The notes beneath the pieces are model-generated. The model searched no databases and was not told the origin of the DNA. It saw nothing but the letters and a program-made list of their open reading frames with translations. From Paludibacteraceae bacterium (GTDB taxonomy: Bacteria; Bacteroidota; Bacteroidia; Bacteroidales; Paludibacteraceae): a DNA stretch of 64,000 nucleotides. Below, in pieces: positions 39,758-63,780 of this stretch (the stretch's first letter is position 1; the number at the start of each line of letters is the position of its first letter). The stretch spans positions 662-64,661 of the forward strand of contig JAGBCD010000004.1 of NCBI GenBank assembly GCA_017938155.1. Reading direction: 5' to 3'. The position numbers and the translations under genes are program-made.

Positions 39758-39837
39758 GGTTTCAAGGTTTGAGAGTTTCATTGCCTTACGGCTGTTTCAC
39801 GCACTTCGTGTTTGTTTCACCGTATCGCTTTTTCAAG
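39758..39837 (+). repeat. repeat locus R1, module A (tandem hairpin+TGTTTCA units)
   Basis: ggtttcaaggtttgagagtttcatt-GCC-ttac-GGC-tgtttca-c-GCAC-ttc-GTGT-ttgtttca...; the same unit type recurs at five other loci. Confidence 0.85.
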
Positions 39838-39922
39838 ATTTCATAACTCACAACTCCACCCCCATCACTCATAACTTTCCCTCCATCACTCATAACTCCT
39901 CCCACATCACTCATACCCCAAA
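39838..39922 (+). repeat. repeat locus R1, module B (G-free ~21-nt tandem repeats, CATCACTCATAACTyyCCCNC)
   Basis: 85 consecutive nt without a single G on the + strand; about 3.5 tandem units. Confidence 0.9.
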
Positions 39923-40319
39923 GCAAGCCAAGACTATGTCTGTTTGCTATGGGGAAAAGCGGAGGTACGAGTTGCCCCAACGATGACAAAGTCATCGGTC
40001 AATGCAATCTCGTTACCGAACGCGACAAACCAAGATTTATCTGTTTGCTATGGGGAAAAGCGGAGGTACATGTCGCCCAATGATGCAAGGCATCAGTCTT
40101 TGCGACCATGTTACCAACGCGACAAACCAAGACTTTATCTGTTTGCTATGGGGAGAAGCGGAGGTACGAGTTGCTTCCAACTTCCCCCTCTGGGTACCCA
40201 AAAGTAAACCAAGACTGCGTCTGTTTGCTTTTGGGAGAGCGGAGACATAAGTCGTCTCAACGATGACGGCGTCATCGGTCTTTACGACCTTATTGTCGAA
40301 CGCGACGTTACCGAACGCG
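39920..40319 (+). repeat. repeat locus R1, module C array (four tandem 80-115-nt units)
   Basis: The units begin with AAACCAAGAnnnnTCTGTTTGCTATGGGGArAAGCGGAGGTA. They start at about 39920, 40027, 40124 and 40206. The array ends in GTTACCGAACGCG, overlapping the dgt stop codon. Confidence 0.9.
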
Positions 40320-41663
40320 TTCAGCGAGTTGCAGTGTATATCCATCTGTCATTCCAGAGATATAGTCTGTGATGAGCATAAACTTCTTGTATGCGTCACT
40401 TGGAGTAGAGTTTCCCTCTTCGCATGCTTTGTTCCAGTAGTTTTCTGAAAATCCATCTTCCATGAATGTCTCGGGAGATAGGTGATTGTCGGTAAAGAGT
40501 TTTACCATATAGTATTGCAGTAGGTATCCAATGGCTTGCTTGCCCATTTCCTCTTTATCCACTGCAGCATGTGACTTGAAGTTGTATATATCCAATTCTT
40601 TGAAGATTGGTTTATATGCTTTCATTGGGGATGCACCTATTAGGTCTTGCATGAATGTCCCGTTTACTATTTGCTCTACATGGTTCACAAATGTTTCCAC
40701 GCAGGCATTGAGCATTTGTCCTTGCATCTTGATGCGTAATTGGTGTAAGAATTGCTCATCATTTATTTGCGACGGAATATTATCTACCAACCATTGTTGG
40801 CATCCATATTTGTCGAAAGTTTGTTTTATATCTTCTATTCCAAATGCTCCCACTTTGGCTCCATCTTCGATGTCACAAACCAGATATGCTATATCGTCGG
40901 CGGCCTCTAACACGAAAGTAAGTGGATGGCGTTGATTGGGTTGTAGGCCTAATGTTTGGTATATTGTGTTGTATTCAGCTTCGTTGCAGTCGAAGTAACC
41001 GAACTTCTCTTGCATATGATTTTCTGCTTCGTTTTTGGGTTTATTGCCTGTTAGGGAATCGTATGGGTATTTGATAAAGGCACTTAACGTAGGCATGGTT
41101 AGATTAAAATTCACCACACCCAGATTGAGTAGTATTCTTAGTCCTTGTGCGTTGCCATCAAAATGTTCAAAGTCGCTTCGTTGACGAGGAGTTAGGGATT
41201 GGTATGCTTTTTTGATGGGTTCTGGAATATCGGCGTTGGGTATGTTTTTGAAGAACGATTGTATATATTTCTCTGTAGTATGTCCAAAGGGAGGATTGCC
41301 TATATCGTGAACCAGTCCTACTACCTCCAGAATAGAAGATATCCATCTTGCTTGATGTATATCGGCGTCTAATAATCCTTTTTTATATAATAGTTCTTCT
41401 ATTCCTCTACCCATATCTTTGGCAAATCGAGACACCTCGATGGAGTGTGTGAGGCGTGTTCTCACAAAATCGTTTTCTGCCAGCGGGTACACTTGTGCTT
41501 TGTCTTGCAGTCGGCGTAAGGGAGCAGATAGCAACACTCGCGAATAGTCGCTTTCAAAGGGTGTACGAGGATCTGTTTCGGGGCGTGATGCAATTGAGCT
41601 ATGTTGCAATCGTATGGGTTGCAACATTTGTCTAAGCTTTGTGGATATATTTCTATTGGTCAT
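40308..41663 (-). CDS. dgt: dGTPase-family deoxynucleoside triphosphate triphosphohydrolase (HD domain)
   Basis: RTPFESDYSRVLLSAPLRRLQDKAQV, RLTHSIEVS and HDIGNPPFGH motifs; 451 aa. Confidence 0.85.
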   Translation of the reverse strand: MTNRNISTKLRQMLQPIRLQHSSIASRPETDPRTPFESDYSRVLLSAPLRRLQDKAQVYPLAENDFVRTRLTHSIEVSRFAKDMGRGIEELLYKKGLLDADIHQARWISSILEVVGLVHDIGNPPFGHTTEKYIQSFFKNIPNADIPEPIKKAYQSLTPRQRSDFEHFDGNAQGLRILLNLGVVNFNLTMPTLSAFIKYPYDSLTGNKPKNEAENHMQEKFGYFDCNEAEYNTIYQTLGLQPNQRHPLTFVLEAADDIAYLVCDIEDGAKVGAFGIEDIKQTFDKYGCQQWLVDNIPSQINDEQFLHQLRIKMQGQMLNACVETFVNHVEQIVNGTFMQDLIGASPMKAYKPIFKELDIYNFKSHAAVDKEEMGKQAIGYLLQYYMVKLFTDNHLSPETFMEDGFSENYWNKACEEGNSTPSDAYKKFMLITDYISGMTDGYTLQLAERVR

Positions 41664-41680
41664 ATATGTAAATTATTCAA

Positions 41681-41873
41681 TTTCAAAGTTTATCGCAACT
41701 TCGTTGCTGTTTCAGGGTTTCAAAGTTTCACCGCTTCGCTGTTTCAGAGATTCATCGCACCTACGGTGCTGTTTCAAAGTTCCAGGTTTCACCGCTTCGC
41801 TGTTTCAATGTTTCATAACTCATAACTCCTCCCCCATCGGGTACCCAAAAGTAAACGACCTGTTTATTTTGGG
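41681..41873 (+). repeat. repeat locus R2 (module A x5 units, short module B, module-C-type start hairpin)
   Basis: Hairpins GCAAC-ttc-GTTGC (41695-41707) and GCACC-tac-GGTGC (41757-41769), each followed by tgtttca. A G-free tract spans 41811-41838. The cccaaaagtaaac/gtttattttggg hairpin spans 41844-41873. Confidence 0.88.
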
Positions 41874-41878
41874 ATTTT

Positions 41879-43228
41879 TTATTTTCCGATACAGAACTTA
41901 CTAAATATATTATTCAGTACTTCTTGTGATGTTATATGTCCAGTCACTTCTCCCATTGCTTGTAGGCAGTCGTGCAAGTCCATTGATAAGAACTCGCCAC
42001 TGATTCCCTCATCCAGTCCTTGTTGTACGCGTTGAATAGCCTCATACCCACGTTGCAATGCTTCATAATGGCGAGCATTCGATAGCATCACGGTACTGGG
42101 TTGGTATTGTTCACGATAGAAGGCCACCATAGCTTCTTTCAGTGCAGACACATCGCCCTCTTTGGCCGAGAGAATGATGCCGTCACTTAGGGAAGAGGTA
42201 TCGGTGATCAAGTCTGACTTGTTGTATAGTTTTAGTACATGTTTGTTTTGCAGTACGTCTAACATCTCTTCTTGCATAAAGTCTTTCAAACTCAGTGCTG
42301 CATCTTGTTGTGCATCAATGACCCAGAGTATGATGTGTGCTTTGCTGGTGGCTTGTTTGCTTCGTTCTATGCCCAGGTTCTCTATCATATCATCGGTACT
42401 TCGTATACCAGCCGTATCTATGAGGCGAAACATCATGCCATCGATTATTAGCGTATCTTCGACCGTGTCTCTTGTCGTTCCTCCTATGGAGCTGACGATG
42501 GCACGTTCTTCGCCCAGCAAGGCATTAAGAAGCGTTGATTTGCCAGCATTCGGTTGTCCGATAATGGCTACAGGGATGCCATTTTTGATAGCGTTGCCAG
42601 TACGGAATGTATTGAGTAGAGATGATAATTGCTCTGCTATTGTATCCGCCAACTGATGTAGTTGCGAACGATCGGCAAACTCCAAGTCTTCGTGGTCTGC
42701 AAAGTCCAGTTCGAGTTCGATAAGTGAAGTGAATTTCAATAACTCTTCGCGCAATGCTTGCAATGCTTTGGATATACCGCCACGCAGTTGACTCAATGCC
42801 AAGTCTTTCTCGGCTTTGGATTGGGATGCAATCAAGTCGGCCACAGCCTCGGCACGAGTAAGGTCCAACTTACCATTTAGGAAAGCTCGTTGTGTAAACT
42901 CTCCTGCTCGTGCCATTTGACAACCAGCGTTGATTAACCATTGCAATAAGGTTTGTTGGATATACATACTACCATGGCAGGCTATTTCCACCACGTCCTC
43001 ACCAGTATAACTATGTGGATTGCGGAATACGCTTACCATCACTTCGTCTAATATCTCCTCACCTTGTTGAATGAGTCCATAACGAATACTATTGGCAGGG
43101 ACGTCGCACAAGGCTTGACGTCCTTTGAATATTCTGTCCGTTATGCTGATAGCCTCACTACCGCTCACACGGATGACGGCGATACCTCCATTACCATATG
43201 GGGTAGATATTGCACAAATCGTTTTCAT
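41879..43228 (-). CDS. mnmE: tRNA modification GTPase MnmE
   Basis: N-terminal TICAISTP, G-domain GQPNAGKST and DTAG motifs, terminal FCIGK. Confidence 0.94.
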   Translation of the reverse strand: MKTICAISTPYGNGGIAVIRVSGSEAISITDRIFKGRQALCDVPANSIRYGLIQQGEEILDEVMVSVFRNPHSYTGEDVVEIACHGSMYIQQTLLQWLINAGCQMARAGEFTQRAFLNGKLDLTRAEAVADLIASQSKAEKDLALSQLRGGISKALQALREELLKFTSLIELELDFADHEDLEFADRSQLHQLADTIAEQLSSLLNTFRTGNAIKNGIPVAIIGQPNAGKSTLLNALLGEERAIVSSIGGTTRDTVEDTLIIDGMMFRLIDTAGIRSTDDMIENLGIERSKQATSKAHIILWVIDAQQDAALSLKDFMQEEMLDVLQNKHVLKLYNKSDLITDTSSLSDGIILSAKEGDVSALKEAMVAFYREQYQPSTVMLSNARHYEALQRGYEAIQRVQQGLDEGISGEFLSMDLHDCLQAMGEVTGHITSQEVLNNIFSKFCIGK

Positions 43229-43243
43229 TATATATCGTTCTTA

Positions 43244-44017
43244 TTATAGTTTAACAAAGCGCAACATACACCACTCATTTTTGTTGTAGGTCGCAGTATG
43301 AGACAGCCCTACTTCTTGGGCACGCGCGACAAGGTTAGGTACGTCTGATGCATAGAAGCCGCTCAGCCACACTTCTCCTTGTGGTAATAGATAGGCTGCA
43401 TAGGAAGGAAGTTGGTCTATTAGTACGTTTCGATGGATATTGGCCATAATGAGATCATATTGTCCTGCTGGAGGCACTGAACCCACTTGTACTGTGATCT
43501 CCTCACCATTATGTGTGGCATTGTCTCGTGCATTATCTACACTCTTGTCATCTATATCTACGGCTAGCACCTCTCCTGCTCCACAACGTTTGGCCATGAT
43601 AGCCAAGACACCGGTACCGCATCCCATATCCAACACGGACGAAGTATCCTTGAGCAAATGACTACCACGAGCAGCCAACAACGCATCTATCATCATGCTG
43701 GTTGTCTCATGGTGTCCTGCACCAAAGGCGCAACATGGTGTGATATGCACCCCTAATGCCAACTCTTGGTCTGCATGTTCAGCATCCCATACGGCATTCC
43801 AGTTTGCGTCCTCACAGGCACGCACATCTATCATGGTGACACCAGGAGTGGAGTCCACCAATGTTTGTAAGGATAGTAAATCAAACTGGGCTGTTTGGAT
43901 ATAAGCTTCGCTTTCATTAAAAGCCTCAAAACCTATATCTGCCAACTGTTGTTCAAATAGGTCTTTCTCCCACTCATGGGCAAAGGAATAATCAAAACAA
44001 GCTACTGTGTATTGCAT
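43244..44017 (-). CDS. prmA: ribosomal protein L11 methyltransferase
   Basis: SAM-binding LDMGCGTGVLAI and AVDID motifs; PrmA-type N-terminal domain. Confidence 0.85.
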   Translation of the reverse strand: MQYTVACFDYSFAHEWEKDLFEQQLADIGFEAFNESEAYIQTAQFDLLSLQTLVDSTPGVTMIDVRACEDANWNAVWDAEHADQELALGVHITPCCAFGAGHHETTSMMIDALLAARGSHLLKDTSSVLDMGCGTGVLAIMAKRCGAGEVLAVDIDDKSVDNARDNATHNGEEITVQVGSVPPAGQYDLIMANIHRNVLIDQLPSYAAYLLPQGEVWLSGFYASDVPNLVARAQEVGLSHTATYNKNEWCMLRFVKL

Positions 44018-44020
44018 GAT

Positions 44021-44629
44021 TTACCATTGGTTATAGTGAACATTATCTTCATTCCATTTGTCTTTCACCTCAGGCGATTCAGCGGGTACACCTATAGGAA
44101 CGATGCATAGCGGAATGATATGTTCGGGCAGGTCTAATAGTTCTTGCACCAATGCCACATACGACATATTAGGATGAATACCAGTCCATACGGCACCCAA
44201 ACCCATTGCATGTGCTGCTAATAGTATGTTTTGCGTAGCTGCCGACACATCGTTAATCCAAAAGTCGGGGCTCTGTTTCAGCGCCTTGGTCATGTCACCA
44301 CAAGGAATGATAGCGCATGCAGGATGATTGCCACAGCGTGAGTATGGCAATGCCTCTCCTATGGTAGCCAGCAACTCGGGATCATCCACCACAACGAATG
44401 CCCAGGGTTGACTATTCATAGCACTCGGAGCTGCCATTGCGCAACGCAGCAATGTATCCAACTGGTTGGAAGAGATACTATCGCCTGTAAACTGACGAAC
44501 ACTAACGCGAGTCATGATAGACTCAATAGGGGTAATCGTTTTCATGTTATCATCGTTTGTAGAAGGACTATTGCAACCCATCAGCAAAAGCATTGAGAGT
44601 GCAAAAATCAAATGTTTATTTATGTTCAT
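44021..44629 (-). CDS. nitroreductase-family protein with a lipoprotein-type signal peptide
   Basis: Lipobox LLLMGC; nitroreductase motifs RVSVRQF and APSAMNSQPW. Confidence 0.8.
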   Translation of the reverse strand: MNINKHLIFALSMLLLMGCNSPSTNDDNMKTITPIESIMTRVSVRQFTGDSISSNQLDTLLRCAMAAPSAMNSQPWAFVVVDDPELLATIGEALPYSRCGNHPACAIIPCGDMTKALKQSPDFWINDVSAATQNILLAAHAMGLGAVWTGIHPNMSYVALVQELLDLPEHIIPLCIVPIGVPAESPEVKDKWNEDNVHYNQW

Positions 44630-44712
44630 ACGTTAGATTTTGTTAGCATTATTAAATTGTATAACCTAAAACGCAAAAGTACGATTTATTTTGCACATAC
44701 ACAAAAAAAACG

Positions 44713-44720
44713 TAATTTTG
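44713..44720 (+). promoter_or_regulatory. -7 box TAATTTTG for folC
   Basis: Matches TAnnTTTG, 21 nt upstream of the ATG at 44741. Confidence 0.5.
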
Positions 44721-44740
44721 CAAACAAATTAACTTCATCT

Positions 44741-46090: not shown

Positions 46091-46098
46091 CGAGGATT

Positions 46099-46307
46099 GT
46101 TTCAACGCACCTGCGGTGCTGTTTCAGGGTTTCAAAGTTTCTCCGCTTCGCTGTTTCAGCATTTCATCGCACCTGCCCAATTCCCTATCTCTCTGTAGGC
46201 ACTATGTGCCGTCCTCTAAACAGTAGGGCTCTGCCCGTCCTCTAAACTGAGCGCTTGCGCTCACCAATTACCAATTACCTATTACCTATTACCAATCCCC
46301 AATCACC
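46099..46307 (+). repeat. repeat locus R3 (module A x3, module D, G-free 7-9-nt tandem repeats CAATTACC/TATTACC)
   Basis: Hairpin GCACC-tgc-GGTGC-tgtttca at 46107-46119. Module D at 46189-46221. A G-free run spans 46261-46312 and contains the M23 stop codon. Confidence 0.88.
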
Positions 46308-47535
46308 TTCTCGCTCCCATCTCATACCCTTGGCATATGCTATCAAATGCAGGGCGTAGATTGTCGGGAATAGGTTCTACTGGAGGAGAAACCATTTTGA
46401 GAGGGTCGATAGGTGTACCACCTTTCCATACACGAAAATCGAGGTGAGGACCTGTGCTATTACCTGTTGAACCAACATAACCGATCACTTGTCCTTGTGA
46501 CACGTGTTTGCCTACAGCTATATCTTTGCCATACTTGCTTAGGTGTAGATAGGCGGTGGTATAGGTAGAGTTATGTCGAATCTTTACGGTATGTCCACCA
46601 CCCCCTTTGTATCCTTTTTGTATCACGACTCCGTCACCGATACTTACGACTGGTGTACCAGCTGGAGCGGCATAGTCAACGCCTGTATGTGGGCGAACAG
46701 TCTTGAAGATAGGGTGACGACGTGCATAGGTAAAACGTGAAGAAATACGTTTGTAGTTCAATGGTGCTTTGAGGAAGGCTTTGCGGAGACTATTTCCTTT
46801 CTCGTCAAAGTACCCACGGATAGGTTTCTCGGGAGGTGTTGGTAGGTCGGAACTATCAAACCAATAGGCTTTTTGCCATTTGTTGGCATGATAGAAATCG
46901 CATGCAAAGATTTTCCCTATACCGATGCGTGCATCATCCACAAATTGTTCTTCATAATAAACGCGGATGGAGTCACCTTTTTGCAGTCCAAAGAAGTCAA
47001 TGGTCCATGCATAAATATCACTTAGTTCCAATGCCAATTCCACGGGTAGGTCGTTATTGGTCATGGCTGCCCATAAACTGGAATTGATTACCACTTCTGC
47101 ACGGCGTTCTTGTGTACAAACAGGTTTCTCGCAGCGTTCAACGTGTAGTGAGTCGTGCAAGTGAATAACATGTGCTACTCGTACATTCTCTTTGTAAACG
47201 AAATAGTGTAGCACATCGGTTCCCAAACTATCTTTTTGATAGAGGCAATAATATTCTTTACCTGGACGAATGCTCCGAACATCAAACACCGAGCGATCGA
47301 GGGTTGTTATTTGTGCTATTTGTTTGGCAGTTGCTCCGTGCCGGTTCAATATCCCGCCTAATGTCTCTCCTGAACGAATGCTGCTTGTATCTACTCTAAA
47401 AGAGTCGATGGGTAACCCAAATTCATAGCGAACACTTGGTTGAGAATCTTCACTATAAAACACAGAGGAATCCCCTCCCGATTTATTACAACTCACCATT
47501 GCAATCAACAATAGGGGAAGAATTAACTTTTTCAT
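46303..47535 (-). CDS. M23-family peptidoglycan metalloendopeptidase, lipoprotein
   Basis: Lipobox MVSC; HTGVDYAAPAGTPV and GSTGNSTGPHLDF motifs. Confidence 0.88.
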   Translation of the reverse strand: MKKLILPLLLIAMVSCNKSGGDSSVFYSEDSQPSVRYEFGLPIDSFRVDTSSIRSGETLGGILNRHGATAKQIAQITTLDRSVFDVRSIRPGKEYYCLYQKDSLGTDVLHYFVYKENVRVAHVIHLHDSLHVERCEKPVCTQERRAEVVINSSLWAAMTNNDLPVELALELSDIYAWTIDFFGLQKGDSIRVYYEEQFVDDARIGIGKIFACDFYHANKWQKAYWFDSSDLPTPPEKPIRGYFDEKGNSLRKAFLKAPLNYKRISSRFTYARRHPIFKTVRPHTGVDYAAPAGTPVVSIGDGVVIQKGYKGGGGHTVKIRHNSTYTTAYLHLSKYGKDIAVGKHVSQGQVIGYVGSTGNSTGPHLDFRVWKGGTPIDPLKMVSPPVEPIPDNLRPAFDSICQGYEMGARR

Positions 47536-47563
47536 ACCAGCAATGCTATTTGTAGAATATGAC

Positions 47564-48307: not shown

Positions 48308-48326
48308 AAATTGGGTTGGGTTGTGA

Positions 48327-49239: not shown

Positions 49240-49345
49240 GAACGCGCCGCGTTCGGTAACGAGATTGCATGAATGATATCGCTCTGCTCTATCATTGAAA
49301 GCAACTCCTACCTCCGCTCTCCCAAAATAAAGCAAACGTTTATTT
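49240..49345 (-). repeat. repeat locus R4, inverted module-C unit (left arm of a long inverted repeat)
   Basis: The reverse complement of 49248-49297 matches 49666-49715 and 49818-49867 with only a few mismatches. The palindrome gaacgcg-c-cgcgttc at 49240-49254 marks the junction. Confidence 0.85.
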
Positions 49346-49367
49346 TGGGTACCCAAGGATTGCTATT

Positions 49368-49400
49368 GTTTAGAGGACGGCACATAGTGCCTACAAAGAG
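49368..49400 (-). repeat. repeat locus R4, module D in inverted orientation
   Basis: The reverse complement ctctttgtaggcactatgtgccgtcctctaaac differs at one position from 46189-46221. Confidence 0.9.
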
Positions 49401-49433
49401 AATTGTTGATTGGTGCCCGAGGGCTATTTTAGA

Positions 49434-49565
49434 GTTTCAAAGTTTCACACCTTATGGTTGTTTCACTGCTTTGCTGTTTCAAGGTTTCATAACTCCCCAC
49501 ATCACTCATAACTCCTCCCACATCACTCATAACTTTCCCCACATCACTCATAACTCCTCCCCTAA
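49434..49565 (+). repeat. repeat locus R4, module A (3 units) plus module B (G-free 21-nt tandem repeats)
   Basis: gtttcaaagtttcac-ACC-ttat-GGT-tgtttca...; a G-free run spans 49485-49565, followed by the hairpin cctcccc-taagtta-ggggagg (49556-49576). Confidence 0.9.
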
Positions 49566-49610
49566 GTTAGGGGAGGTGCCCACAGGGCGGAGGGGTCTGT
49601 CACCCCCAGA

Positions 49611-49918
49611 GCAAACCAAGATTTATCTGTTTGCTATGGGGAGAAGCGGAGGTACGAGTTGCCCAAACGATAGAGCAGAGCGATATCGGTCAATGCAATC
49701 TCGTTACCGAACGCGACAAACCAAGACTATGTCTGTTTGCTTTTATATCGGGGTCCCCAGAGCAAACCAAGATTTTATCTGTTTGCTATGGGGAGAAGCG
49801 GAGGTACGAGTTGCCCAAACGATAGAGCAGAGCGATATCGGTCAATGCAATCTCGTTACCGAACGCGACGTCATCGGTCTTTACGACCTTATTGTCGAAC
49901 GCTCCGTTACCTACCGCG
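49611..49918 (+). repeat. repeat locus R4, module C array (two full units, one partial, terminal module)
   Basis: Two near-identical units cover roughly 49611-49716 and 49760-49867. The terminal gtcatcggtctttacgaccttattgtcgaacgc..gttacc..ccgcg is the same as the end of R1. It overlaps the stop codon of the 1646-aa gene. Confidence 0.9.
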
Positions 49919-52900
49919 AAATACTGCATAATACGTAACATCTGCTGTTACGGTCTTATCTTCTGGGCTATCAAACAAGTCAGTTGGTGGGCAGAATGGG
50001 TTTTGATAGTTCTTAATAGCAGTCCAGCCAACAAACTCTTTACCGTTAGTAGTTCCTACTTCGGTGCTTGGCATACGGAGTGCTTCACCTGAAGTATAGC
50101 GATAAGTTGCCTCTGCGTCGGTTAGTGCCACACCATCAACCATCCATGTCACACCCAATTTGCCATCACTCACGACCTCATCACTTACATATACCATATA
50201 CGATGCTGTAACTGTTTCATAAGTAGCTGTTTGTGCGATAGTAGCTGTGATTGTAGCCAAGCCTGCAGATACGCCCAACACTTGTCCTGTGATTGCATCC
50301 ACCGTCGCAATAGTTTCATCTGCACTGGTATATGCTACTACACCATCATGCTCACCTTTGTCCACCTCTACTATTCTTGATTCACCCATTTTTAAGTTCA
50401 CTTGTGCTTCAGCAAAACTTGGAGTAATCTTCTTGCGTACAACGGTAACATTGTAAGATGCGGTGGCTGCACTGTACGTTCCTGCTACTGCAGCTACAGC
50501 TACAGTGATAGTGGTATTGCCTGCTGCCAAGGCAGTCACTTGACCATTGGTTTCATTTACTGTAGCTACATTCACGTCGCTACTGGTGAAGGTCTTTGCA
50601 CCAGTAGAGTTGCATTCCAATTCGTTGGTATAGGTGTCTCCTATGGTCAACACCTTGTTGGCATCAGCAAACTCAAGGGTAGGATTTTGGGTTAAATCAA
50701 TTTCACCCGAGCAGTCGGTAGAGTAGTACATATAGGTGGTAGCAGTACCTGCGGTGTATGTAACCTCCAAATTGTTGAGGTAGAGGCGCGAATTCTTGTC
50801 GGTTCCTACACAAGTGAAGAGTACGCTGTTAGCATTGAGCCCCGACTTGGTATATTTGCCATTAGCACTAATGGATTGTGCAGCACTGGTGCTACCTGCA
50901 TCCGCCTTGTAGGTAACAGAGGTAGCCATACTCGAACCGATAGTAATGGCGGTAATCGTGGCACCTGTTTTGGCAGTGACAGTCAGTGTACCACCATTTT
51001 GATAGATACGCAGTACGCCATTGCTGATAAACGGATCATTTTGTGCACCGCCTTTAGCTGCGGCATAGGAGATATAGCTATCCATGTTTGCAGACGTGGC
51101 AGTGAAGTTGGTCATAGTGGTGGTAACTACATTGGCGCTGCCTGTTTTCTCCAAAGCATATACGGCATAGTAGGTGGCATCGGCTGTCACTTCCTCGCCC
51201 GCAGAGATAAACTCTGGTGCTTGGGTGTCGTTGTGATAGTCGTTGGTAGCAATCCATCCAACAAACTTTTTGGTATTGGCACAAGCCGTTGGCGTAGTTG
51301 CTGGCAACGCCAATTTATCGCCTTCAGTGTAGGTGACTTCGTCACCAAACTGTTCGCCATTAGCCTTCCATGTGACGGTGTATTTCGCCAAATCTGTAAT
51401 AGTCAGTTGGTATTTCGCGCTGGCAGCATTATTGTACGTGCCTTCTGCCACAGATGCGGTGATGTCGACTGTACCTGCCTTCTTAGGGGTGACTACACCA
51501 CTGCTATTGACGGTAGCGGTCGTTTCATCCGAAGATGAGTAAGTGATAGTACCATAGGTGGTAGTGGCAGGGTTAGAGAATGGCTGGTTGACCTTAGTAG
51601 TTTGGTTGCCATCGTATTTGAATGTAATATCAGGGGTTTGCTTTACGATCTCACCTGTTTGGCTCACGTAGAGGTACAGTCCCTTTTGCGCCGAAGTATA
51701 GGTGCGGAAGCGTGGACTGCTACTGTTGTAGTAGAGTTGCGTACCGCCTACGGTCATTATCGTTTTCCCATCATCGCCCACGTTGATAGTCCATGTGCTA
51801 TTAGCACCATCCCATCCCAATTTGTCAGTAGTACCTGATAGTTTCTTACTTTCGCTGTTGGTGAGTGTCCATGCACCAGTGCTACCGCCGAGGGTGAAGA
51901 TAGAAATATCGGTATTGGTCTTTTGGGTGGTAATCTCTGTGCCGTTGACGGTGAAGCCCGTGGTAACACTCTCCAAGTAGGTGTTGCTCACCAGTTGTCC
52001 CGCTACGGCAGGAGTTTCGGCATATACCAGAATACACTTTGCATCTGCTTGCAGCATGGAGGTATTGGTCAATCGAGTAAAGGTAATTGCATTCTCAGGA
52101 TCAATCTCTGGCATGATATAAATGCCGAGGTCGCCTTCCACATTGCTGATAGTAAGGGTCGTACCGCTATAGCTAAACTCGCGTGCCTCGCCATTTTGCT
52201 CTACTTCTATCATTGTATTGTCGAGCACATATCCCAACGCTGGTGTCACAGTCAGGGTGAGTGTGCCACCTTTGGCTACAGAGCCTACTTCGCTACTAAT
52301 GGTGGCGTTTTCGTATAGCACCTCGTATGTCCATCGCGCTTTGGTGGCGGTGGCAGTGATGGTGATAGTTTGGATTGCATCGCCAGTGATGGCAGAGCCA
52401 TTGATAGTTAGATACTGATTGTTGTTGGATAGGGTATAGTGAGTATCTTTGGTCAAAGTGGTAGAGCCTAATTTCACGCTAACGGATGTAATATCGTAGC
52501 TGGCGTCAGCAGGAATGATATTGGCGGTAAGCGCTGCGCCATTCGCCACACAGTCGCTGCTTGGGGTGATGGTACAATCGGAACCATCGGTGAGGACACT
52601 ATGACATTCGGCATTGTCAATATAGGTGAGTGTGATGACTCCCCCGCTCTCGGTGATGTCCAATAACGGTTTACCGCTCACGCCTTCCCAACGGGTTTTC
52701 TTCTTAGTTCCAGGAAATGGGTCTGCAGCAGTACCTATACCTGTGGTAGCACCAGAGGCTGAGACTATAGCATAGCGTATAGTGCCGTCGGTATCGTTTG
52801 GACCATTATCCTCCCATTCCGATTGGCTGTACATGATTTTCCATATCACCAAACCATGTCCAGGCAGATAGGCATCCCATCCACTCTTTTGGCGGTTTTC

Positions 52901-57800: not shown

Positions 57801-60800
57801 TGCTAAAGCGCGACTTTCGTTAACAGGTGAAGTAATGCGCCATGAACCATTTGTTCCCGTAGAAATGGTCCAAATCGTTTCGCCAGTACTCAAATTAGTG
57901 CTTGAAGAAGCAGTATGTCCAATATTGGAACTACCTAATTGGATGGTATATTTGTTGTCTCCTTTGTGGGTCAGTGTATAGTCTGAAGCAGATAGTACAT
58001 TGGTGGTGCTTCCTAATTTGCTATCACTTACGCCACCTTGTGCATAGTAGTTTGTACCATTTACATTAGCGTACATCTTGAATGTACCGCTTTCGCCGAG
58101 CACAAACTCTGTACCGCCTGCACCTTTTGTAGCGAAGACAGCGTAGTAAGTCTTATCGGCTGTGACGGTGGCAGTAGTAGTTTTGAAGAGGTCAGTTGGT
58201 GCTGTAGTAGCATGATAGTAACCGCTTTGTTCAGTCCAACCAACGAACTCTTTCACACCATCACAAGATGCTGGGGCGGCAGGAAGTTCAAGTGTTTCTC
58301 CATGATTATATTCTATAGGAGTTGTCACACCATTGTTGTTCCATGTTACTATGTAAGTGTTCACTAGCCATTGAGCAGTGAGCGTAATATCACTTGTTGG
58401 GGTGAAACTGTTGTTGGGTTGATATGTATTTATGCCATCCGACCAACCTTGGAAAGTATATCCCTCTTTGGTAGGTGCTTCGTCGCAAATGGTGTAGGTA
58501 TCACCTTGTGGTACACTTGTATTAGAACAGTGACTACCTGTACCGCCCGCGAAATCGTAGGTGATAGACCAACTTGCTACGCAAACAGGATTGCTGTTGT
58601 AGGTGGTAGTGGAGCCACCAGAAGATTTTACGTAGAACCCAAGGGTTTGATTGGCGGTATTTCCTGTAGTGTTATCATAACAACGCCAATCAGGATTAGT
58701 TCTGTAAACACCGACGTAGCGATTGGTATTTGTGTTTTTAAGATATCCACTTGAAGCATCAATAGTAAATGCTTTATTAGTATTTGTACCAATACGTACA
58801 CCGTCATTTGAATTCGTACAATAGAGCCACTTTTCAGTCGTACCATTTGGGTATATCGTCAATGTTCCACTGCTATTGGAGATGTTCCACTTGAGAGCAT
58901 CCGCAGGTTCAGCAGATAGTTTGTTATCGCTTACGGTTACGGTAGGTGCAGGAGGAGTGTCGCTAGACTCATTGCTACTACTAAGTGCATAAACGGTTCC
59001 ATCTGTATATGTCATAGTAATAACAACAATGTCGTCATCAGCAATATCTTCGATGTTGGTCAGTACATAATCGCTACTTCCTCCGCCTCCTGCTTCGGTA
59101 TAACTATATACAGCGTAGAGAGTGCAGTCGCTTGTTGGTTTGTAATTCGAACCAGCAGTGAAGAGAGTCGGTGCTATGGTTGTTTCCGTTACAGTTGCTT
59201 CTGCCCAACCTGCAAAAGTCCAACCTTCAGATTGGCAGGCAGTAGATGGAGTAGCGGATGGCAATATTGTTCCTGTTTCGTTAGTTATACCTGTTGCAGA
59301 TTCAGGAGCTGTACCCAAACCGGCATTGTAAGTAATTGTGTATAACTTAGCAGACCATTGGGCTGTATATGTAAGATTTTCTGTTCCCATTTCTGTAACA
59401 GGAGTTGGGGACCACCCTTCAAAGTTGTAGTGTTCACGCGTTGGATCTAAAGGAGGAGTAATTGTTTCTCCCTCTTCGTAAGATTGCACCTTATTGTTAG
59501 TATTACCATCCCAATTACCACCATTAGGATTCCATGTAACGGTATGTTGAAGCAGATTACACGAGGTCGTATAATTACTATAGGTTATGGAAGATGTGTA
59601 AAAAAACAACTTACCTAAACCAATATTAGAACCTTTGGTGTAAAGTAACTTAACGTACTTTGGAGATGCATTTATTTCTACTGTAAAATTCTTTTGACTA
59701 CCTCCTGAGTTACTACTTATACTACACGACCCTTTTGAAACATATTCTTCTCCATTATCAGAGGTTTGAATAGTCATAGTCGAAGTATTTTCTCCTCCTA
59801 TCATTTGGACACTAAAATAAACTTTAGTTATTTTTTTATTATTTACATTTTCATACAATATGTAATCTCCCGTATTATCCATTTTTACTCGATAAGCGCC
59901 ATACGATTCTGCATAATTATCTCCTAATCCACTACCGGTAATATTTGCTATTGCAACTAATGTTTCCTTTGTTCCCCCTTCAAATGCGGTCAACAATACA
60001 TCTTCATTACCTTCAATTGCCGTAGCAAACACAGCATAATAGTCTTTTCCATTTTCAGGCATTGTCATACCTGTTGTGTTGGTTATCAAATCATCGGGTG
60101 CTTCAGTAGCATGTTCATAGGAGGTTTTGGTAGTCCATCCTACAAATACTTTGCCACCACATTCGTAGTCATTTAGATTAGGAATATCAGTCAGAGTGCT
60201 CCCTGCATAATCTTCTTGGGTGTGTTCCTTATTGCCATTAACATACCAATTAACCGTGTACATTGATTGTTGCTCCCACTTGGCGTAGAGAGTAATGTCT
60301 GCATCAATAGTTGCACCTGCTGTAGCATTAGTATTGAATTCGCTATCGGTGTACCAACCTAAGAAGGTATAGCCAGTCCTAGTAGGTGTAGGCAGTGGGT
60401 CTGGCAATGTAGTTCCAGAGGTTGCTGCGATTGCATCACCACCGTTGGTGTTATAGGTAATGGTGTAGCCTATTGGATCTGGGGTGCTACTATAACAAAT
60501 GGTAATGCTATTGATATTGCAATAAGTTCCAGTTGTTTTTAATGCCAAATTAAAATAAGGGTTGTTGCCAGAAAATGTGTATGTAACAGAACCTGTACCT
60601 GTTTTAGATGGTGACACGACTGTAGAACTTGGTTTAGAAGTACTACCTTCATACATATTAAAATAACCACTACCACCAGAATTGTAATCAACAACTATTG
60701 ATTCTATGTTTCCACTAAAAGGCGTTGTGTTTGCAATATACGCCCCCGATAGCGATTTATTGAAAGACAGATATGAATTGTATTTGTACCCCCCTTTGTT

Positions 60801-61487
60801 TTCAAAAGTAATGCCATCTATTGAAGCAGAATATACACTCGTATTACTTGATGAAGTAGAGTTAAATGGATAATTACTAGTTGCTGATAATGTTAGGCAG
60901 TTTGTATCTCCAGAATCACCTCCACCACTAGCAGAAGGAGTGTAAGTGAGAGTAAATGATTGACAATATAGTGAGTTAACTGTTGCTACAATTGTAATGA
61001 CAATTTCCTCTCCATTACCAACTGTGGTTGCAGTTACAGATGGATTTACATCTACATATGATGTTGACCAACTACCATGCCAATTGCTATTGTTGAAATT
61101 AGTTGTTGCTATGGACGATATAGTGGTATTCCCTATTATCATTGACATGTTACCAGCACCTTTACTTGAGTTAGATTTCATGCTTAAAGTTAAGCCAGTA
61201 ATTTTACATCCATCGTAACCAGATAAAGTAAGAGTCATGTTATTGCTAGCGATCAATTGGCATTTAGTCGAATAAGTGCTCTTATAGGTAGCGCTACTTC
61301 CATCTGGTGCAGTTCCTGATTTAGTAACTTCAGAGGTTGAGAATACTGTATAAGTGACAGTTTCCGCCCACGCAGTACTTGCAGTTAGGGTTAGGAACAT
61401 GACGAGCAAGAATCGTATACCCTTAGTATACCCTTGCAATACCTTTAGTACATTTTTCACTTGATTGAAATAAGTAGATTGTGTCAT
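54900..61487 (-). CDS. giant secreted repeat protein (2195 aa) with at least 8 Listeria-Bacteroides (Flg_new/InlB-B-like) repeats
   Basis: Signal peptide ...FLTLTASTAWA. Canonical repeat YTITYNTNGGDAIAATSGTTLPDPLPTPTRTGYTFLGWYTDSEFNTNATAGATIDADITLYAKW, plus variants ending YYAVFAT. Sits 52 nt upstream of the M6 protease gene on the same strand. Confidence 0.8.
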   Translation of the reverse strand: MTQSTYFNQVKNVLKVLQGYTKGIRFLLVMFLTLTASTAWAETVTYTVFSTSEVTKSGTAPDGSSATYKSTYSTKCQLIASNNMTLTLSGYDGCKITGLTLSMKSNSSKGAGNMSMIIGNTTISSIATTNFNNSNWHGSWSTSYVDVNPSVTATTVGNGEEIVITIVATVNSLYCQSFTLTYTPSASGGGDSGDTNCLTLSATSNYPFNSTSSSNTSVYSASIDGITFENKGGYKYNSYLSFNKSLSGAYIANTTPFSGNIESIVVDYNSGGSGYFNMYEGSTSKPSSTVVSPSKTGTGSVTYTFSGNNPYFNLALKTTGTYCNINSITICYSSTPDPIGYTITYNTNGGDAIAATSGTTLPDPLPTPTRTGYTFLGWYTDSEFNTNATAGATIDADITLYAKWEQQSMYTVNWYVNGNKEHTQEDYAGSTLTDIPNLNDYECGGKVFVGWTTKTSYEHATEAPDDLITNTTGMTMPENGKDYYAVFATAIEGNEDVLLTAFEGGTKETLVAIANITGSGLGDNYAESYGAYRVKMDNTGDYILYENVNNKKITKVYFSVQMIGGENTSTMTIQTSDNGEEYVSKGSCSISSNSGGSQKNFTVEINASPKYVKLLYTKGSNIGLGKLFFYTSSITYSNYTTSCNLLQHTVTWNPNGGNWDGNTNNKVQSYEEGETITPPLDPTREHYNFEGWSPTPVTEMGTENLTYTAQWSAKLYTITYNAGLGTAPESATGITNETGTILPSATPSTACQSEGWTFAGWAEATVTETTIAPTLFTAGSNYKPTSDCTLYAVYSYTEAGGGGSSDYVLTNIEDIADDDIVVITMTYTDGTVYALSSSNESSDTPPAPTVTVSDNKLSAEPADALKWNISNSSGTLTIYPNGTTEKWLYCTNSNDGVRIGTNTNKAFTIDASSGYLKNTNTNRYVGVYRTNPDWRCYDNTTGNTANQTLGFYVKSSGGSTTTYNSNPVCVASWSITYDFAGGTGSHCSNTSVPQGDTYTICDEAPTKEGYTFQGWSDGINTYQPNNSFTPTSDITLTAQWLVNTYIVTWNNNGVTTPIEYNHGETLELPAAPASCDGVKEFVGWTEQSGYYHATTAPTDLFKTTTATVTADKTYYAVFATKGAGGTEFVLGESGTFKMYANVNGTNYYAQGGVSDSKLGSTTNVLSASDYTLTHKGDNKYTIQLGSSNIGHTASSSTNLSTGETIWTISTGTNGSWRITSPVNESRALAYRASTYNIFKAYSMKNVEAGDTEYFDIEFGSGSSGYSDYTTTCQQVESIEVQSPQTEFYLTDDFTIGSGKVIATLSGGGTTDVTALAHFSGYNMEATGTQTVTVTYMGATATYNINVKALDNAWVLTWNVSGKTNTGLGPRSVTKGNAIGTLPTPEVPDACEGKTFMGWTTSNIVPSDGIGIEYITSATKPTDNTTYYAVFATINNFSIQKPIDQITSGTNVVIVAVSSMDANGTAGKAISSRATDDTHNLQGDDVTIVDEHINTPHSTCIWTVEKVDGKYRFSQNGKYLNGVIEGKYSNLKYLETIDSWTLTEAASGMTMTYNMKSTNASTEYVEWYNGKFTIHDEVNNNGAFDMQFFVTANAYGDADITDYTTGCAEYTITYYGFTGGYSTSSTSDGTIVLPVNSYITIPDCGDVVKDPTTLGREFLDVWMTKPHGGHSFKPGDTFVLTQDTTLYAQWKLETTGDVITLPTDVEDLAGTDIYVYGGTTLNIQPGTTTINTLVLRGGIQSDGSYKMPSIWVPEGATLVRNNNKIYLDLAINAKNWYPFAVPFATTNNSSIDYLDPVLNAASTYGTHFDIKTYDGARRADVGEDRTNNWVHLNRHTVDAPVKLQPGVGYLITAMTYPDKDTATIRIPMTVPNTWFQNGEQTIVGTTVRNTIAVTAHTGAAATEHQRHAGWNFVANPYLTNFAGNNVVNDGGLNYINGAIDIEGGYTYGGEDVPYVTVPAYDFSYYEQYKLSDVKLSPEWSFFVQVGTSGTMNFTTEGRQHAPATIRANSANAKPSFDANIVIINENANEADHTGLVINDRYSTAYEIGGDLEKMFGSANRTALYTLNNNIRLAYNALAMEDATQPIPLGYRAEKAGEYTIQLTNPNEIVGVESIVIKDNYNNVTTNLLISDYTFYTEQVQDDERFVIYIVPKQNTTTNLMDMVDKTETKKVIFNNHLYIIHNGYIYDGVGKTIKNK

Positions 61488-61510
61488 ATCTTTTTGTATA
61501 TTTAATTTAC

Positions 61511-61788
61511 AAGTTTCATGCGCTGTGCGCTTGTTTCAAAGTTTCAAGGTTTCAGGCACCAGAGGTGCGGTTTCATGCCTTGCAGCTGGTTCAAGCGGCA
61601 GAGCCGCAGTTTCAAAGTTTCAAGGTTTCAAAGTTTCAATATAAGTGTAAGCATCTTGTGATGCTTGTTTCATGCGCTGTGCGCTTGTTTCAAAGTTTCA
61701 TCGCTTCGCTGTTTCACGAGACGGTGTTATGTTATGTACGCCTACGGCGCAGTGTTGCTCTGAAATGTTGACATTATTTGGATATTAG
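61511..61788 (+). repeat. repeat locus R5 (module A x6-7 units plus a 72-nt tail)
   Basis: Five hairpins, each followed by (t)gtttca: GCGC-tgt-GCGC (61520-61530), GCACC-aga-GGTGC (61556-61568), GCGGC-aga-GCCGC (61595-61607), AAGCATC-ttgt-GATGCTT (61649-61666) and a second GCGC-tgt-GCGC (61673-61683). Confidence 0.9.
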
Positions 61789-61830
61789 AGTTTTTAAGCG
61801 GGCTTTTTTGTTTGTTTCAAAAAAAAAATG

Positions 61831-61838
61831 TACCTTTG
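61831..61838 (+). promoter_or_regulatory. -7 box TACCTTTG for hipBA
   Basis: Matches TAnnTTTG, 72 nt upstream of the hipB ATG. Confidence 0.55.
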
Positions 61839-61909
61839 CAGCGAATTAAACTATCATATAATATAGCTTACCTATTGTTTACTTAATTATATGATACATT
61901 ATTATAATT

Positions 61910-62227
61910 ATGAGCAAGTCCACACAAAGCACTCTTCTGCCACGAAGAGCCCAAAAAAACTTAGCAATTGCAGGCGAACAAATTCGTTTGGCTCGTTTGC
62001 GCCGTGATATCAGTATTGCACAGATGGCTGACTGGGCTGGTTGTTCGGAGCTGACAGTCATGCGTGTCGAAAAAGGGACTCCATCTGTAGCGATAGGAAC
62101 CTATCTGCGTATTCTGTTTGCTTTGAACTTAGACGAAGATATCTTGTTAATCGCACAGCAAGACACCATCGGTCGTGAACTACAAGACCTTTCACTCAAG
62201 CAACGCCAACGTGCATCATCAAAATAA
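61910..62227 (+). CDS. hipB: XRE-family HTH antitoxin (HipB-like)
   Basis: HTH segment IRLARLRRDISIAQMADWAGCSELTVMRVEKG; sits 6 nt upstream of the hipA-like gene. Confidence 0.8.
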   Translation: MSKSTQSTLLPRRAQKNLAIAGEQIRLARLRRDISIAQMADWAGCSELTVMRVEKGTPSVAIGTYLRILFALNLDEDILLIAQQDTIGRELQDLSLKQRQRASSK

Positions 62228-62233
62228 TATACT

Positions 62234-63469
62234 ATGCAACAGATTGAAGTATATCTTAATCACAACGCCCAATTAGAAAAGGTCGGCACGCTTACTTACG
62301 AACAGTTGCGAGGCAATGCTACGTATCACTTTTCGTATAATGCCAAGTGGCTTAGTAATCATCTGCACCTATCCCTTAGTGGTGATTTACAATCGCATAC
62401 GGGCTGGCAACATACCACGAAGCGCTTATTCGGTTGCTTCACTGATGCGTTACCTGATCGCTGGGGACGACGATTGATTGATAAGCGTGAGCAGATTTTA
62501 GCTCAGGCAGATGGTCGTATTCCTCGTACATTCAACGATTTTGATTATCTGCTTCAGCTGGATGATTTCTCTCGTATGGGAGCGTTTAGATTTCGCATTG
62601 AGGGAGAGAAGGAATTCATGGGCATCTTTGATGAAGCAATGTCTGTTCCTCCACTCACTTCTCTACGCGAATTTACCAACATTGCACAAGCTTACGAGGC
62701 GAAGCCAGATAATATACAATGGGTTACGAATCTGCTACGCCAGGGCTCTTCCTTAGGTGGTGCACGTCCAAAAGCGAATATGATGGATGAAAATGGCGAC
62801 TTGTATATTGCCAAAGTGCCTTCTATCCACGATGATTATGACGTGGCGCTTTGGGAGCATTTTGCTCACCTGTTAGCTAAAAAAGCTGGAATACAAGTTG
62901 CAGACACCCGCTTGATGGTTATCCCAGGTTTTTCTCATCATGCATTGCTATCCAAACGCTTTGACCGAATAGGTCAAGATCGTGTGCACACGGTATCGGC
63001 GATGACGCTGACTAACCTTCAAGACGGTGCGGATGCATCTTCTGGAAATGGTTATTTGGATATTGTGGACACCATCGTCAGCGGCATTGGTATCGCTGAT
63101 GCAGACATGAATCTCAGAGAATTATATCGCCGCATCGCGTTCTCTATTTGTATCGGCAATCACGATGACCATTTCCGCAACCATGCTTTTGTTTTAACAC
63201 AAAATGGCTGGACACTTTCGCCTGCTTATGATATTAACCCTACCAACATGCTCACTCAGAGTTTGCTGATTTCGGATTCTTCTTGTAATTCTTCACTTGT
63301 AGAGTTGCTACACGCTTCAGGTCAGTACTTATTGCCAGCGGAAGTAGCAGCGCAGATTATCAACGAGGTGAAAGACGCAGTCCGCGATTGGCGCAAAGTG
63401 GCAACACTTTGCCACATCTCTCCAAGCGAACAGCAACGCTTTGCAAAACGTTTGGAATACTGCTTTTAA
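62234..63469 (+). CDS. hipA: type II toxin HipA-family serine/threonine kinase
   Basis: GGARPK motif (SSLGGARPKAN), catalytic loop NHDDHFRNHAF, and a HipA N-terminal coupling domain (VGTLTYEQ...YHFSYNAKW). Confidence 0.9.
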   Translation: MQQIEVYLNHNAQLEKVGTLTYEQLRGNATYHFSYNAKWLSNHLHLSLSGDLQSHTGWQHTTKRLFGCFTDALPDRWGRRLIDKREQILAQADGRIPRTFNDFDYLLQLDDFSRMGAFRFRIEGEKEFMGIFDEAMSVPPLTSLREFTNIAQAYEAKPDNIQWVTNLLRQGSSLGGARPKANMMDENGDLYIAKVPSIHDDYDVALWEHFAHLLAKKAGIQVADTRLMVIPGFSHHALLSKRFDRIGQDRVHTVSAMTLTNLQDGADASSGNGYLDIVDTIVSGIGIADADMNLRELYRRIAFSICIGNHDDHFRNHAFVLTQNGWTLSPAYDINPTNMLTQSLLISDSSCNSSLVELLHASGQYLLPAEVAAQIINEVKDAVRDWRKVATLCHISPSEQQRFAKRLEYCF

Positions 63470-63487
63470 TTGAATTACACAAGAAAT

Positions 63488-63537
63488 TCCGCCTAAAAAG
63501 TGTAATATTTTACAGAAAGTCCGCCTAAAAAGTGTAA
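63488..63537 (+). repeat. two direct copies of TCCGCCTAAAAAGTGTAA spaced 32 nt apart, just after the hipA stop
   Basis: Copies at 63488-63505 and 63520-63537. Each can form a stem-loop (ttacac...gtgtaa and ttttaca...tgtaaaa). Confidence 0.8.
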
Positions 63538-63615
63538 AATCCAAATATGTCAATACGTCAAAGAGCACTTTTACGACAGAGTCGCTATAGTATATCTCGG
63601 CTTACGCCTTGATGT

Positions 63616-63780
63616 CTCAAAGTTTCAATATAAGTGTAGCATCTTGTGATGCTTGTTTCATGCGCTGTGCGCTTGTTTCAAAGTTTCACCGCACCTACGG
63701 TGCTGTTTCACGCGACGGTATTATGTTATGTACGCCTGCGGCGCAGTGTTGTTTTGAAATGTTGACATAATTTGGATTAG
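63616..63780 (+). repeat. repeat locus R6 (module A x4 units plus tail); direct repeat of 61628-61788
   Basis: Collinear with the right part of R5 over about 160 nt. The differences are one swapped hairpin unit (GCACC-tac-GGTGC instead of CGCTTCGCTG) and a handful of substitutions. Confidence 0.9.

Follow-up and report, generated by a model that had tools for sequence, protein, structure and literature searches.

Mosaic intergenic repeat arrays with a co-varying hairpin module in a Paludibacteraceae bacterium

What kind of sequence fills one intergenic gap after another with the same small set of repeated pieces? The question is raised by a 64,000-nt stretch of DNA from an uncultured gut Paludibacteraceae bacterium (order Bacteroidales; GenBank assembly GCA_017938155.1, contig JAGBCD010000004.1, positions 662 to 64,661 of the forward strand), here called the window, which is positions 30,800-94,799 of a 371-kb metagenome scaffold. 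With 8.6 kb to its left (locus L150) and 10 kb to its right, 82 kb of the scaffold was examined in all. The original prediction, made from the letters alone, described a "BIME-like" family (after bacterial interspersed mosaic elements) built from modules A to D in six gaps. We conclude, with a probability of about 0.6, that these arrays are lineage-specific, non-autonomous mosaic intergenic repeats, the functional counterpart of REPIN/BIME, NIME (neisserial intergenic mosaic element), BOX and BrickBuilt. The family is new in itself and its kind is already known; the covariation of module C and the fixed polarity of the arrays are its most distinctive features.

The repeats lie where they had been placed and far exceed chance. 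In the window, a pattern search for GTTTCANNGTTTCA allowing at most one mismatch returned 21 matches, all on the + strand and all at or beyond position 39,751, against 0.62 expected from shuffled sequence. Repeat finding, which joins all six gaps through common families, agrees with these counts that the gaps between 39.75 and 63.78 kb are assembled from common modules, and Tandem Repeats Finder reported arrays with periods of 7, 8, 21, 61 and 98 nt. The claim that bases 1-39,700 hold no copy stood as well, both the pattern search and the module C covariance model being blank there. The array-free stretch reaches the further 8.6 kb upstream, and the same region is array-free in a sister species. 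The gaps are non-coding, mosaic and modular, as predicted: the open reading frames (ORFs) at 49273-49938 and 40037-40345 give no Pfam match, C units differ from one another by indels whose lengths do not keep to multiples of three, and an apparent "AFGN" peptide motif is merely the translation of a terminal motif, so that a protein-coding reading was rejected. An assembly chimera at gap 1 was ruled out, the join being spanned by three independent assemblies. That the modules belong to no recognized RNA family was borne out by an Rfam search of the gaps, which gave nothing at the gathering score or at E ≤ 1, and by 18 related loci, which gave no match either.

Module A had been described as short GC hairpins each followed by TGTTTCA. 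The repeat itself held, the hairpins proved weak, and we redefine the module as GTTTC[A/T] hexamers with variable spacers. Across the lineage the spacer is 2 nt in 111 of 194 adjacent hexamer pairs, giving tandem GTTTCARR octamers spaced 8 nt; other spacers of 10, 13, 14 or 16 nt form GC mini-hairpins of 2-5 bp (such as GCACC-nnn-GGTGC, GCGC-tgt-GCGC and GCC-ttac-GGC), with a mean best stem of 2.76 bp compared with 1.79 bp in shuffles. All six gaps carry the module on the + strand: at 39751..39841, where hexamers and mini-hairpin spacers alternate with each other; at 41681..41815, directly upstream of the dgt start codon; at 46099..46175, from 9 nt past the folC stop codon; at 49423..49489; at 61511..61716, with GC mini-hairpins; and at 63614..63710, downstream of hipA. 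In the mnmE-dgt gap (gap 2) it takes the form of a 32-nt higher-order unit, GTTTCARR GTTTCAAA GTTTC(A/T)C(C/T)GCTTCGCT, present in 2, 3, 5, 7, 8 or at least 9 copies among close relatives, and the behavior of module A is that of a variable minisatellite.

Module B was correctly described as G-free tandem repeats, with runs of 85, 81 and 53 nt and units of 21 nt (CATCACTCATAACTCCTCCCA) or 7 nt (CCAATTA). The 85-nt run of 21-nt units lies in gap 1 (39838..39922, + strand), the 81-nt run in gap 4 (49485..49565, + strand), and a heptamer array (CCAATTA/CCTATTA) in gap 3 (46260..46312, + strand). Module D, announced as a 33-nt element, is in fact a small variable hairpin followed by GTCCTCTAAAC; two such units, together with the palindrome TGAGCGCTTGCGCTCA, stand at 46188..46263 (+ strand) in gap 3. 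The tetranucleotide GTAG precedes D in the window copies and TACAG does so in the related locus L125, and modules A and C have no such tag. Two direct-repeat pairs beside gap 6, of 27 nt (AGAAAKTCCGCCTAAAAAGTGTAAWAT) and 33 nt (GCRAAAAAYAGTGGGAAACCACCGAAATTTRCA), at 63,482-63,540 and 63,788-63,913, are not common to other gaps; the 33-nt pair lies 5′ of a DUF4143 ATPase gene and is possibly the "33-nt element" of the original prediction. The smaller pieces are hairpins F and G (CCCCTAAGTTAGGGG; GGGG..CCCC) at 49556..49600 (+ strand), which bridge B to C in gap 4, and a tail module, X, at 61708..61783 in gap 5 (+ strand, upstream of the hipB promoter region), which is 92% identical to its copy at 63702..63777 in gap 6 (+ strand).

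Module C had been given as tandem units of 80-115 nt. It is one structured unit of ∼115 nt with two stem-loop domains; the 98- and 152-nt periods likewise represent C, either by itself or joined by additional pieces. Units occupy 39911-40025, 40026-40122, 40123-40175 (truncated) and 40192-40305 of the gap 1 array (39911..40319, + strand), and 49599-49716 and 49750-49868 of the gap 4 array (49599..49918, + strand), with a fragment holding hairpin 1 only between the latter two and a tail to 49918. Twenty-five full units, drawn from the window and from related contigs, were aligned, and the covariance model was built from the same units. RNAalifold yields a 5′ hairpin and a long 3′ stem (columns 50-66 with 100-119) around a small hairpin, and the arms of this stem come in three versions that co-vary, GGTACGAGTTGC/GCAAyCTCGTTACC, GACATAAGTCGTC/GACGACCTTATTGTC and GGTACATGTCGC/GCGACCATGTTACC. 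Over the 25 units 98.2% of the pair cells are paired, compared with 30-37% when the partners are slid; 81 cells are changed on both sides compared with 28.4 in shuffles, and none of 500 shuffles reached 81. Compensatory changes occur at 12 of the 34 pairs, and helix 5, with 12 pairs, has seven changed on both sides while 99% of its cells remain paired. Because pairing survives so many compensatory changes, module C must fold as a single strand. The pair cells comprise 808 Watson-Crick, 19 G·T and 3 A·C combinations, a wobble excess that modestly favors folding of the + (top) strand, as RNA or as single-stranded DNA. Gaps that contain C are strongly structured (z of -4.4 and -12.2), whereas A-only gaps are not unusually so (z about -1 to -3); strong structure resides in module C.

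The order of the modules is as constant as their composition is variable. On one strand A is followed by B (or by D plus heptamers), then by small hairpins and then by C, on every contig of the lineage, and all arrays on any one contig are co-oriented, whichever way the flanking genes point: they are antisense to both neighbors in gaps 2 and 4 and co-directional elsewhere. The uniform orientation claimed for module A therefore holds, with the qualification that gap 4 also has an inverted C unit (49247-49354) and an inverted D unit (49363-49401), the only - strand module copies within the window (49247..49401). Rightward, the additional 10 kb contains two further + arrays, so that eight consecutive gaps are occupied between 39.7 and 71.2 kb, and none is found in the 48 kb to the left on the scaffold. 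The predicted local clustering thus describes the scaffold and fails for the family, since JGI metagenomes, when scanned for the C core, yielded at least seven other contigs with module C, all from one related metagenome genome; each has one to four arrays, often at contig ends. Nor do the arrays appear to occur evenly in most gaps genome-wide; they are dispersed, and patchily so. IMG/VR contains neither module A nor module C, and a phage origin was rejected.

Relatives were compared locus by locus, the close lineage being 91-93% identical in dgt and 97% in SecA and the distant ones 60-68% identical in dgt or MnmE. The distant loci have no modules and show compact operons or other neighborhoods. 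Close relatives carry arrays in the same gaps with different module content. One of them has A-D-(AATTCAAA)n-C in the mnmE-dgt gap; a gap of one relative has both D and the heptamer array in inverted orientation; a further module, E, takes the place of the hairpin 1 loop of C in relatives; and one 152-nt C unit of gap 4 is missing in L002 and L003, assemblies otherwise 99.97-100% identical. The arrays thus change fast, by gain and loss of whole units and by exchange of modules between loci. They also coincide with synteny breaks and with the edges of strain-variable cassettes: a 7.5-kb NfeD-priA block stands between two arrays beside dgt in L131 and L140, and in L147 and L148 cassette borders coincide with arrays. 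In these two loci, compared with 52-73 kb in window coordinates, the giant surface genes left of hipBA are swapped for Fn3_assoc/CHB_HEX_C_1 and other Flg_new genes, a second copy of the DUF4143 ATPase is present, and the homology blocks end at arrays. In 19 of 23 cases the contigs with dgt variants are shorter than 2 kb, and a length of ∼4.3 kb, precisely that of the stretch separating gap 2 from gap 3, is common among mnmE contigs. The arrays therefore break assemblies in many samples, and they flank dgt and the mnmE-folC block with such regularity that the majority of assemblies end there.

If the arrays are non-autonomous mosaic repeats of this lineage, slipped-strand or unequal recombination would multiply units locally, template switching or gene conversion at the junction motifs GTTTCA and CGAACGCG could swap modules, and new gaps might be colonized through recombination or through an enzyme whose gene lies elsewhere in the genome. 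Host effects would be by-products. They might come from hairpins or terminators at 3′ ends, from the terminator-like + strand hairpin of gap 2, from the AAACTTTG boxes that lie close to promoters on the bottom strand of module A, from module B, whose G-free, C-rich tract resembles a Rho-loading site, and from portable homology for rearrangement. Several observations weigh against this account. No mobilizing enzyme and no clean filled-versus-empty site has been found in the lineage; every close relative has an array in each examined gap and the distant relatives have lost synteny. The gaps stay occupied across species while their content turns over, which could mean function and not parasitism. 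There are ∼13 independent agreements in co-orientation, which simple selfish spread does not predict. Short-read repeat collapse may explain some of the copy-number differences, including that of the 152-nt unit.

The covariation of module C and the lasting occupation of the same gaps across species would also suit functional units on the + strand, in which B acts as a rut-like (Rho utilization) site and C and a hairpin T as structured RNA, pause sites or terminators that shield adjacent genes from read-through or antisense transcription, or in which C is a small RNA family. We consider this unlikely. The G·U over A·C asymmetry (19 vs 3) and the G-free runs of 85, 81 and 53 nt fall on the same strand, and in gap 2 the sequence reads as a module B fragment followed by hairpin T (CCCAAAAGTAAAC..GTTTATTTTGGG) and a T-run (41810..41881, + strand), which has the form of a terminator on the + strand and adjoins the intact mnmE stop codon. 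The wobble asymmetry, however, comes from ∼9 columns, Rfam is blank even at E ≤ 1, the arrays are not preceded by a conserved promoter, near-identical strains differ in copy number and in their modules, and array orientation is not tied to the flanking genes. A scan for promoters and terminators gave counts at shuffle level, using sigma-70 rules that are ill-suited to Bacteroidetes.

The shared polarity invites another reading, which we hold to be doubtful: the arrays could be the footprint of an unrecognized strand-specific process on single-stranded nucleic acid, with module A joining an undescribed cross-phylum class of GTTTCARR repeats. Candidates would be an HUH-type or other enzyme encoded elsewhere, or template switching at the replication fork, and either would copy hairpin modules in one orientation over tens of kilobases. 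If true, the pattern would point to a conserved regulatory or structural DNA or RNA element rather than junk. Octamers of this kind were surveyed in loci with three GTTTCARR copies (L005-L124), mostly Acidobacteriota among the matches listed. About 45% of 93 high-GC loci, mostly Acidobacteriota (Terriglobales), among the matches listed have an inverted (GTTTCARR)n-spacer-(YYTGAAAC)n arrangement between genes, which makes long hairpins; in one locus it falls inside a ribosomal-protein operon, between rplN and rplX. Twenty-seven low-GC loci among the matches listed, mostly Bacteroidota, have a direct octamer array; in 18 of 22 of these low-GC loci the gene that flanks the GTTTCA strand on its 5′ side is encoded on the opposite strand and starts 10-60 nt away, and a TAnnTTTG promoter often lies between array and gene start. 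No Rfam match was found in loci L005-L124.

Classical MITEs (miniature inverted-repeat transposable elements), that is, deletion derivatives of insertion sequences with terminal inverted repeats that are moved in trans, as proposed for BrickBuilt, are an improbable explanation. In gap 4 inverted C arms at 49245-49270 and 49845-49870 are 96% complementary, the leader-minisatellite-tail layout recalls BrickBuilt, and module E is nested in the loop of C hairpin 1 in relatives. Terminal inverted repeats are nevertheless inconsistent among the arrays: only gap 4 has inverted ends, these are whole C units, and the inverted left arm recurs neither in any of the remaining seven arrays nor at the corresponding gap of L125. 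Module E swaps a hairpin loop without any duplication, and no target-site duplication is visible at any array boundary. The arrays did not prove to be pieces of an annotated insertion sequence or MITE flanked by target duplications. Membership in BrickBuilt was rejected because the arrays lack the BrickBuilt/IS5 terminal repeat GAGACCTTTGCA. Transposases are lacking from the 82 kb of scaffold and from the annotated related loci, and RAYT (REP-associated tyrosine transposase, Y1/HUH) genes from the 82 kb and from the related loci with Pfam calls; the prediction that the window contains neither was correct.

Other mobile or recombining systems were also considered. An inverton at gap 4 was rejected: the orientation is the same in L001-L004 and L139, the left inverted repeat is absent in L125, and no recombinase gene is nearby. 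Integron attC sites or CALINs (clusters of attC sites lacking an integron integrase) were rejected too, as GTTACCG and GTTTCAA misfit GTTRRRY, core genes (mnmE, prmA, folC) lie between the arrays and there is no integrase. A literature search by sequence returned nothing relevant.

That each gap grew its own satellite by slippage in situ, without dispersal and under a common mutational bias only, is decidedly improbable. Module A does behave as a variable-number tandem repeat, and related genomes are rich in unrelated 7-8-nt tandem repeats. Independent slippage cannot, however, yield shared complex modules, and C with its three arm types, D, X and E recur at >85% identity in many unlinked gaps and contigs, which contradicts this explanation. 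The 7-8-nt repeats were seen in L157 and L158 (a Paludibacteraceae-like relative, MnmE 68% identical), where a dozen near-perfect heptamer or octamer arrays of 4-6 copies lie within 21 kb, partly inside intact genes (folC, prmA, yicC and an S9 peptidase), and are identical in two independent samples; there they take the place of poorly conserved protein segments and leave the length unchanged.

The edge of the array region coincides with a change in composition. GC content rises from ∼0.39 to ∼0.45 to the right of gap 1, and the GC skew at third codon positions (GC3 skew, + strand) is -0.23 for + genes and -0.19 for - genes to the left and +0.04 and +0.24, respectively, to the right, flipping exactly at gap 1; the positive skew ends at ∼61.5-62 kb and is about 0 thereafter. 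The left region is core housekeeping DNA (secA, rho, tsf, rpsB, rpsI, rplM, metK, holA, prfB and dnaE); its SecA is 100% identical to that of a metagenome-assembled Paludibacteraceae bacterium at NCBI. Gap 1 (39,682-40,308) is both the compositional step and a synteny breakpoint between lineages, and the simplest guess is that a past rearrangement with an endpoint at gap 1 lies behind the step. The site of chromosome partition parS is a 16-bp palindrome, TGTTNCACGTGAAACA; it does not occur in the window within two mismatches, and the single match with three, at 26420, is at chance level. Chromosome-organization or replication-linked sites (parS half-sites, origin-proximal or polarized motifs) would account for the uniform orientation and the edge at 39.7 kb but are highly improbable as an explanation of the arrays: the skew flip, the co-orientation of all eight scaffold arrays and a resemblance of TGTTTCAC to a parS half-site are set against the missing parS, the lack of a DnaA-box cluster, at gap 1 too, the fading of the positive skew beyond 62 kb, the array top strand lying on the strand of opposite skew on other contigs, a + oriented array on the negative-skew side in L140, and modules B, C and D, which would be left unexplained. 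The relation of GC3 skew to array orientation is inconsistent between contigs and follows no replication rule.

The arrays fill their gaps completely and end flush with genes, sometimes reaching into them. The gap 1 array begins just after the intrinsic terminator (39704-39735) of a 162-aa gene. Genes on the opposite strand run at their 3′ ends into the motif that closes module C, GTTACCGAACGCG or CTTATTGTCGAACGCGAC. The TAA stop of dgt (40308-40310) and its last codons come from the repeat motif GTTACCGAACGCG, and the repeat-encoded tail reads ERVR* here and RRVRQ* in relatives, more distant homologues ending otherwise. The C tail of gap 4 supplies the TAA stop of an M6-peptidase gene (49907-49909), a giant surface-protein gene just beyond the window (L145) has its TAA stop in a repeat terminus with the same motif, and the M23 peptidase gene ends within the heptamer array of gap 3, its TGA being at 46303-46305. 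The mnmE gene retains its native ending (...CIGK*), and the array begins at the next base. At the 5′ ends of dgt and two giant genes, all on the - strand, module A sets in 18-24 nt ahead of the start codon; in gap 5 the distance is 24 nt to the start of a gene for a 2195-aa surface protein. Directly upstream of the three genes its bottom strand carries AAACTTTG boxes, candidate Bacteroidetes -7 boxes close to the consensus TAnnTTTG.

The dgt gene and the left region gave some further observations. Two loci with dgt homologues 64% identical (L142, L143) place the gene beside AbiEii, RelA_SpoT, RES and phage-like genes, with the look of a defense island, and the dgt of the window may be a defense-type dGTPase and not a housekeeping one. 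At 19,009-19,710 (core ∼19,220-19,400) ∼560 nt are absent from the sister species, the gap being 122 nt in L153. This element has a Bacteroidetes-type promoter (GTATTATCTTTGC), an ORF of 18-19 codons or an RNA (..RYGHPT.SS.MRTRC), and 3.5 copies of the 11-mer AAAATGTCTYG. The same element lies in gap 1 downstream of dgt in L125 and L126, where it is fused to module C, so that a related mobile piece does lie within the first 39 kb. The sole Rfam match in the window is a SAM-II (long-loop) riboswitch at 26,623-26,682 on the - strand (57.4 bits, E 2e-8), which sits 5′ of metK (25,292-26,548); no tRNA or tmRNA gene was found in the window.

The family has practical consequences. It breaks metagenome assemblies at predictable sites, affecting the quality of metagenome-assembled genomes, gene calling and strain typing, and its A minisatellite is a ready-made variable marker for the last of these. 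It rewrites the last codons and stop codons of neighboring genes and marks rearrangement points and the edges of strain-variable surface-protein cassettes. The unusually clean covariation of module C, with no RAYT gene in view, makes the family a possible test case for how REPIN-like hairpins persist or spread without a known transposase.

Among known systems, BIMEs consist of REP (repetitive extragenic palindromic) units in alternating orientation, separated by linker motifs. The name "BIME-like" is accordingly an analogy only: in the present arrays the units share one orientation, the inverted copies at 49247-49401 apart, follow a fixed A→B→C order and include octamer and G-free satellites, which are unstructured. 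We know of no RAYT-linked REPs described in Bacteroidales. REPINs show compensatory hairpin changes and form tandem clusters (PMC3116915), and the REP, BIME and REPIN clusters of Pseudomonas and Escherichia coli are among the closest known systems (PMC3116915, PMC3733652). Like REPINs and BIMEs, the arrays place GC-rich stem-loops between the genes of an AT-rich genome, build tandem clusters several hundred base pairs long, vary between strains and often lie at gene 3′ ends. The 3′ domain of module C is, as in a REPIN, an inverted doublet of ∼70 nt with co-varying arms, helix 5 being the hairpin-forming doublet with compensated arms, and the arms pair through compensatory changes. A REP is a short imperfect palindrome tagged at one end by GTAG (or CGTC); some module D units of the window have GTAG next to a palindrome, but GTAG is not conserved (TACAG in L125).

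The cyanobacterial short tandemly repeated repetitive (STRR) sequences, which Mazel et al. reportedly described in 1990, lie between genes as tandem arrays whose 7-8-nt units are asymmetric in strand composition. This pattern is also that of the octamers of module A and of the CCAATTA heptamers; STRRs, by contrast, are simple arrays that lack ordered composites with structured units, and they differ in phylum and sequence. The pneumococcal BOX element is said, after Martin et al. in 1992, to be built as boxA-boxB(n)-boxC over ∼100-300 bp. It shares with the arrays a modular, directional and intergenic layout, variable middle units and stable hairpins, with no relation in sequence, and differs from them in that the arrays have more than three modules and contain octamer and G-free satellites. 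NIMEs, reportedly described by Parkhill et al. in 2000, are said to be RS units flanked by dRS3 that lie near variable surface genes and provide portable homology for recombination and cassette exchange. The arrays similarly combine variable units with a constant short motif and cluster near surface genes, again without a relation in sequence; dRS3, unlike GTTTCA, which is a direct repeat, is a 20-bp inverted repeat targeted by phage and IS110-type integrases.

Intergenic mosaic repeats have, to our knowledge, barely been described in Bacteroidales, BrickBuilt being the main example. BrickBuilt is a MITE of Porphyromonas gingivalis with an internal strain-variable minisatellite, always intergenic and without an Rfam match; it is bounded by 12-nt terminal inverted repeats of the IS5 type, shows target duplications in some cases, and lies 49-591 nt from coding sequences (PMC4596501). 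The present arrays, which lack those terminal repeats and target duplications, overlap stop codons and have a richer set of modules that includes the co-varying 115-nt C. They resemble BrickBuilt in belonging to the same order, in their leader-repeat-tail layout with expanding and contracting repeats and partly deleted leaders and tails, in their restriction to a species or genus, in their frequent position beside genes for surface or secreted proteins, and in an internal strain-variable minisatellite, here the 32-nt A unit with its 2 to at least 9 copies.

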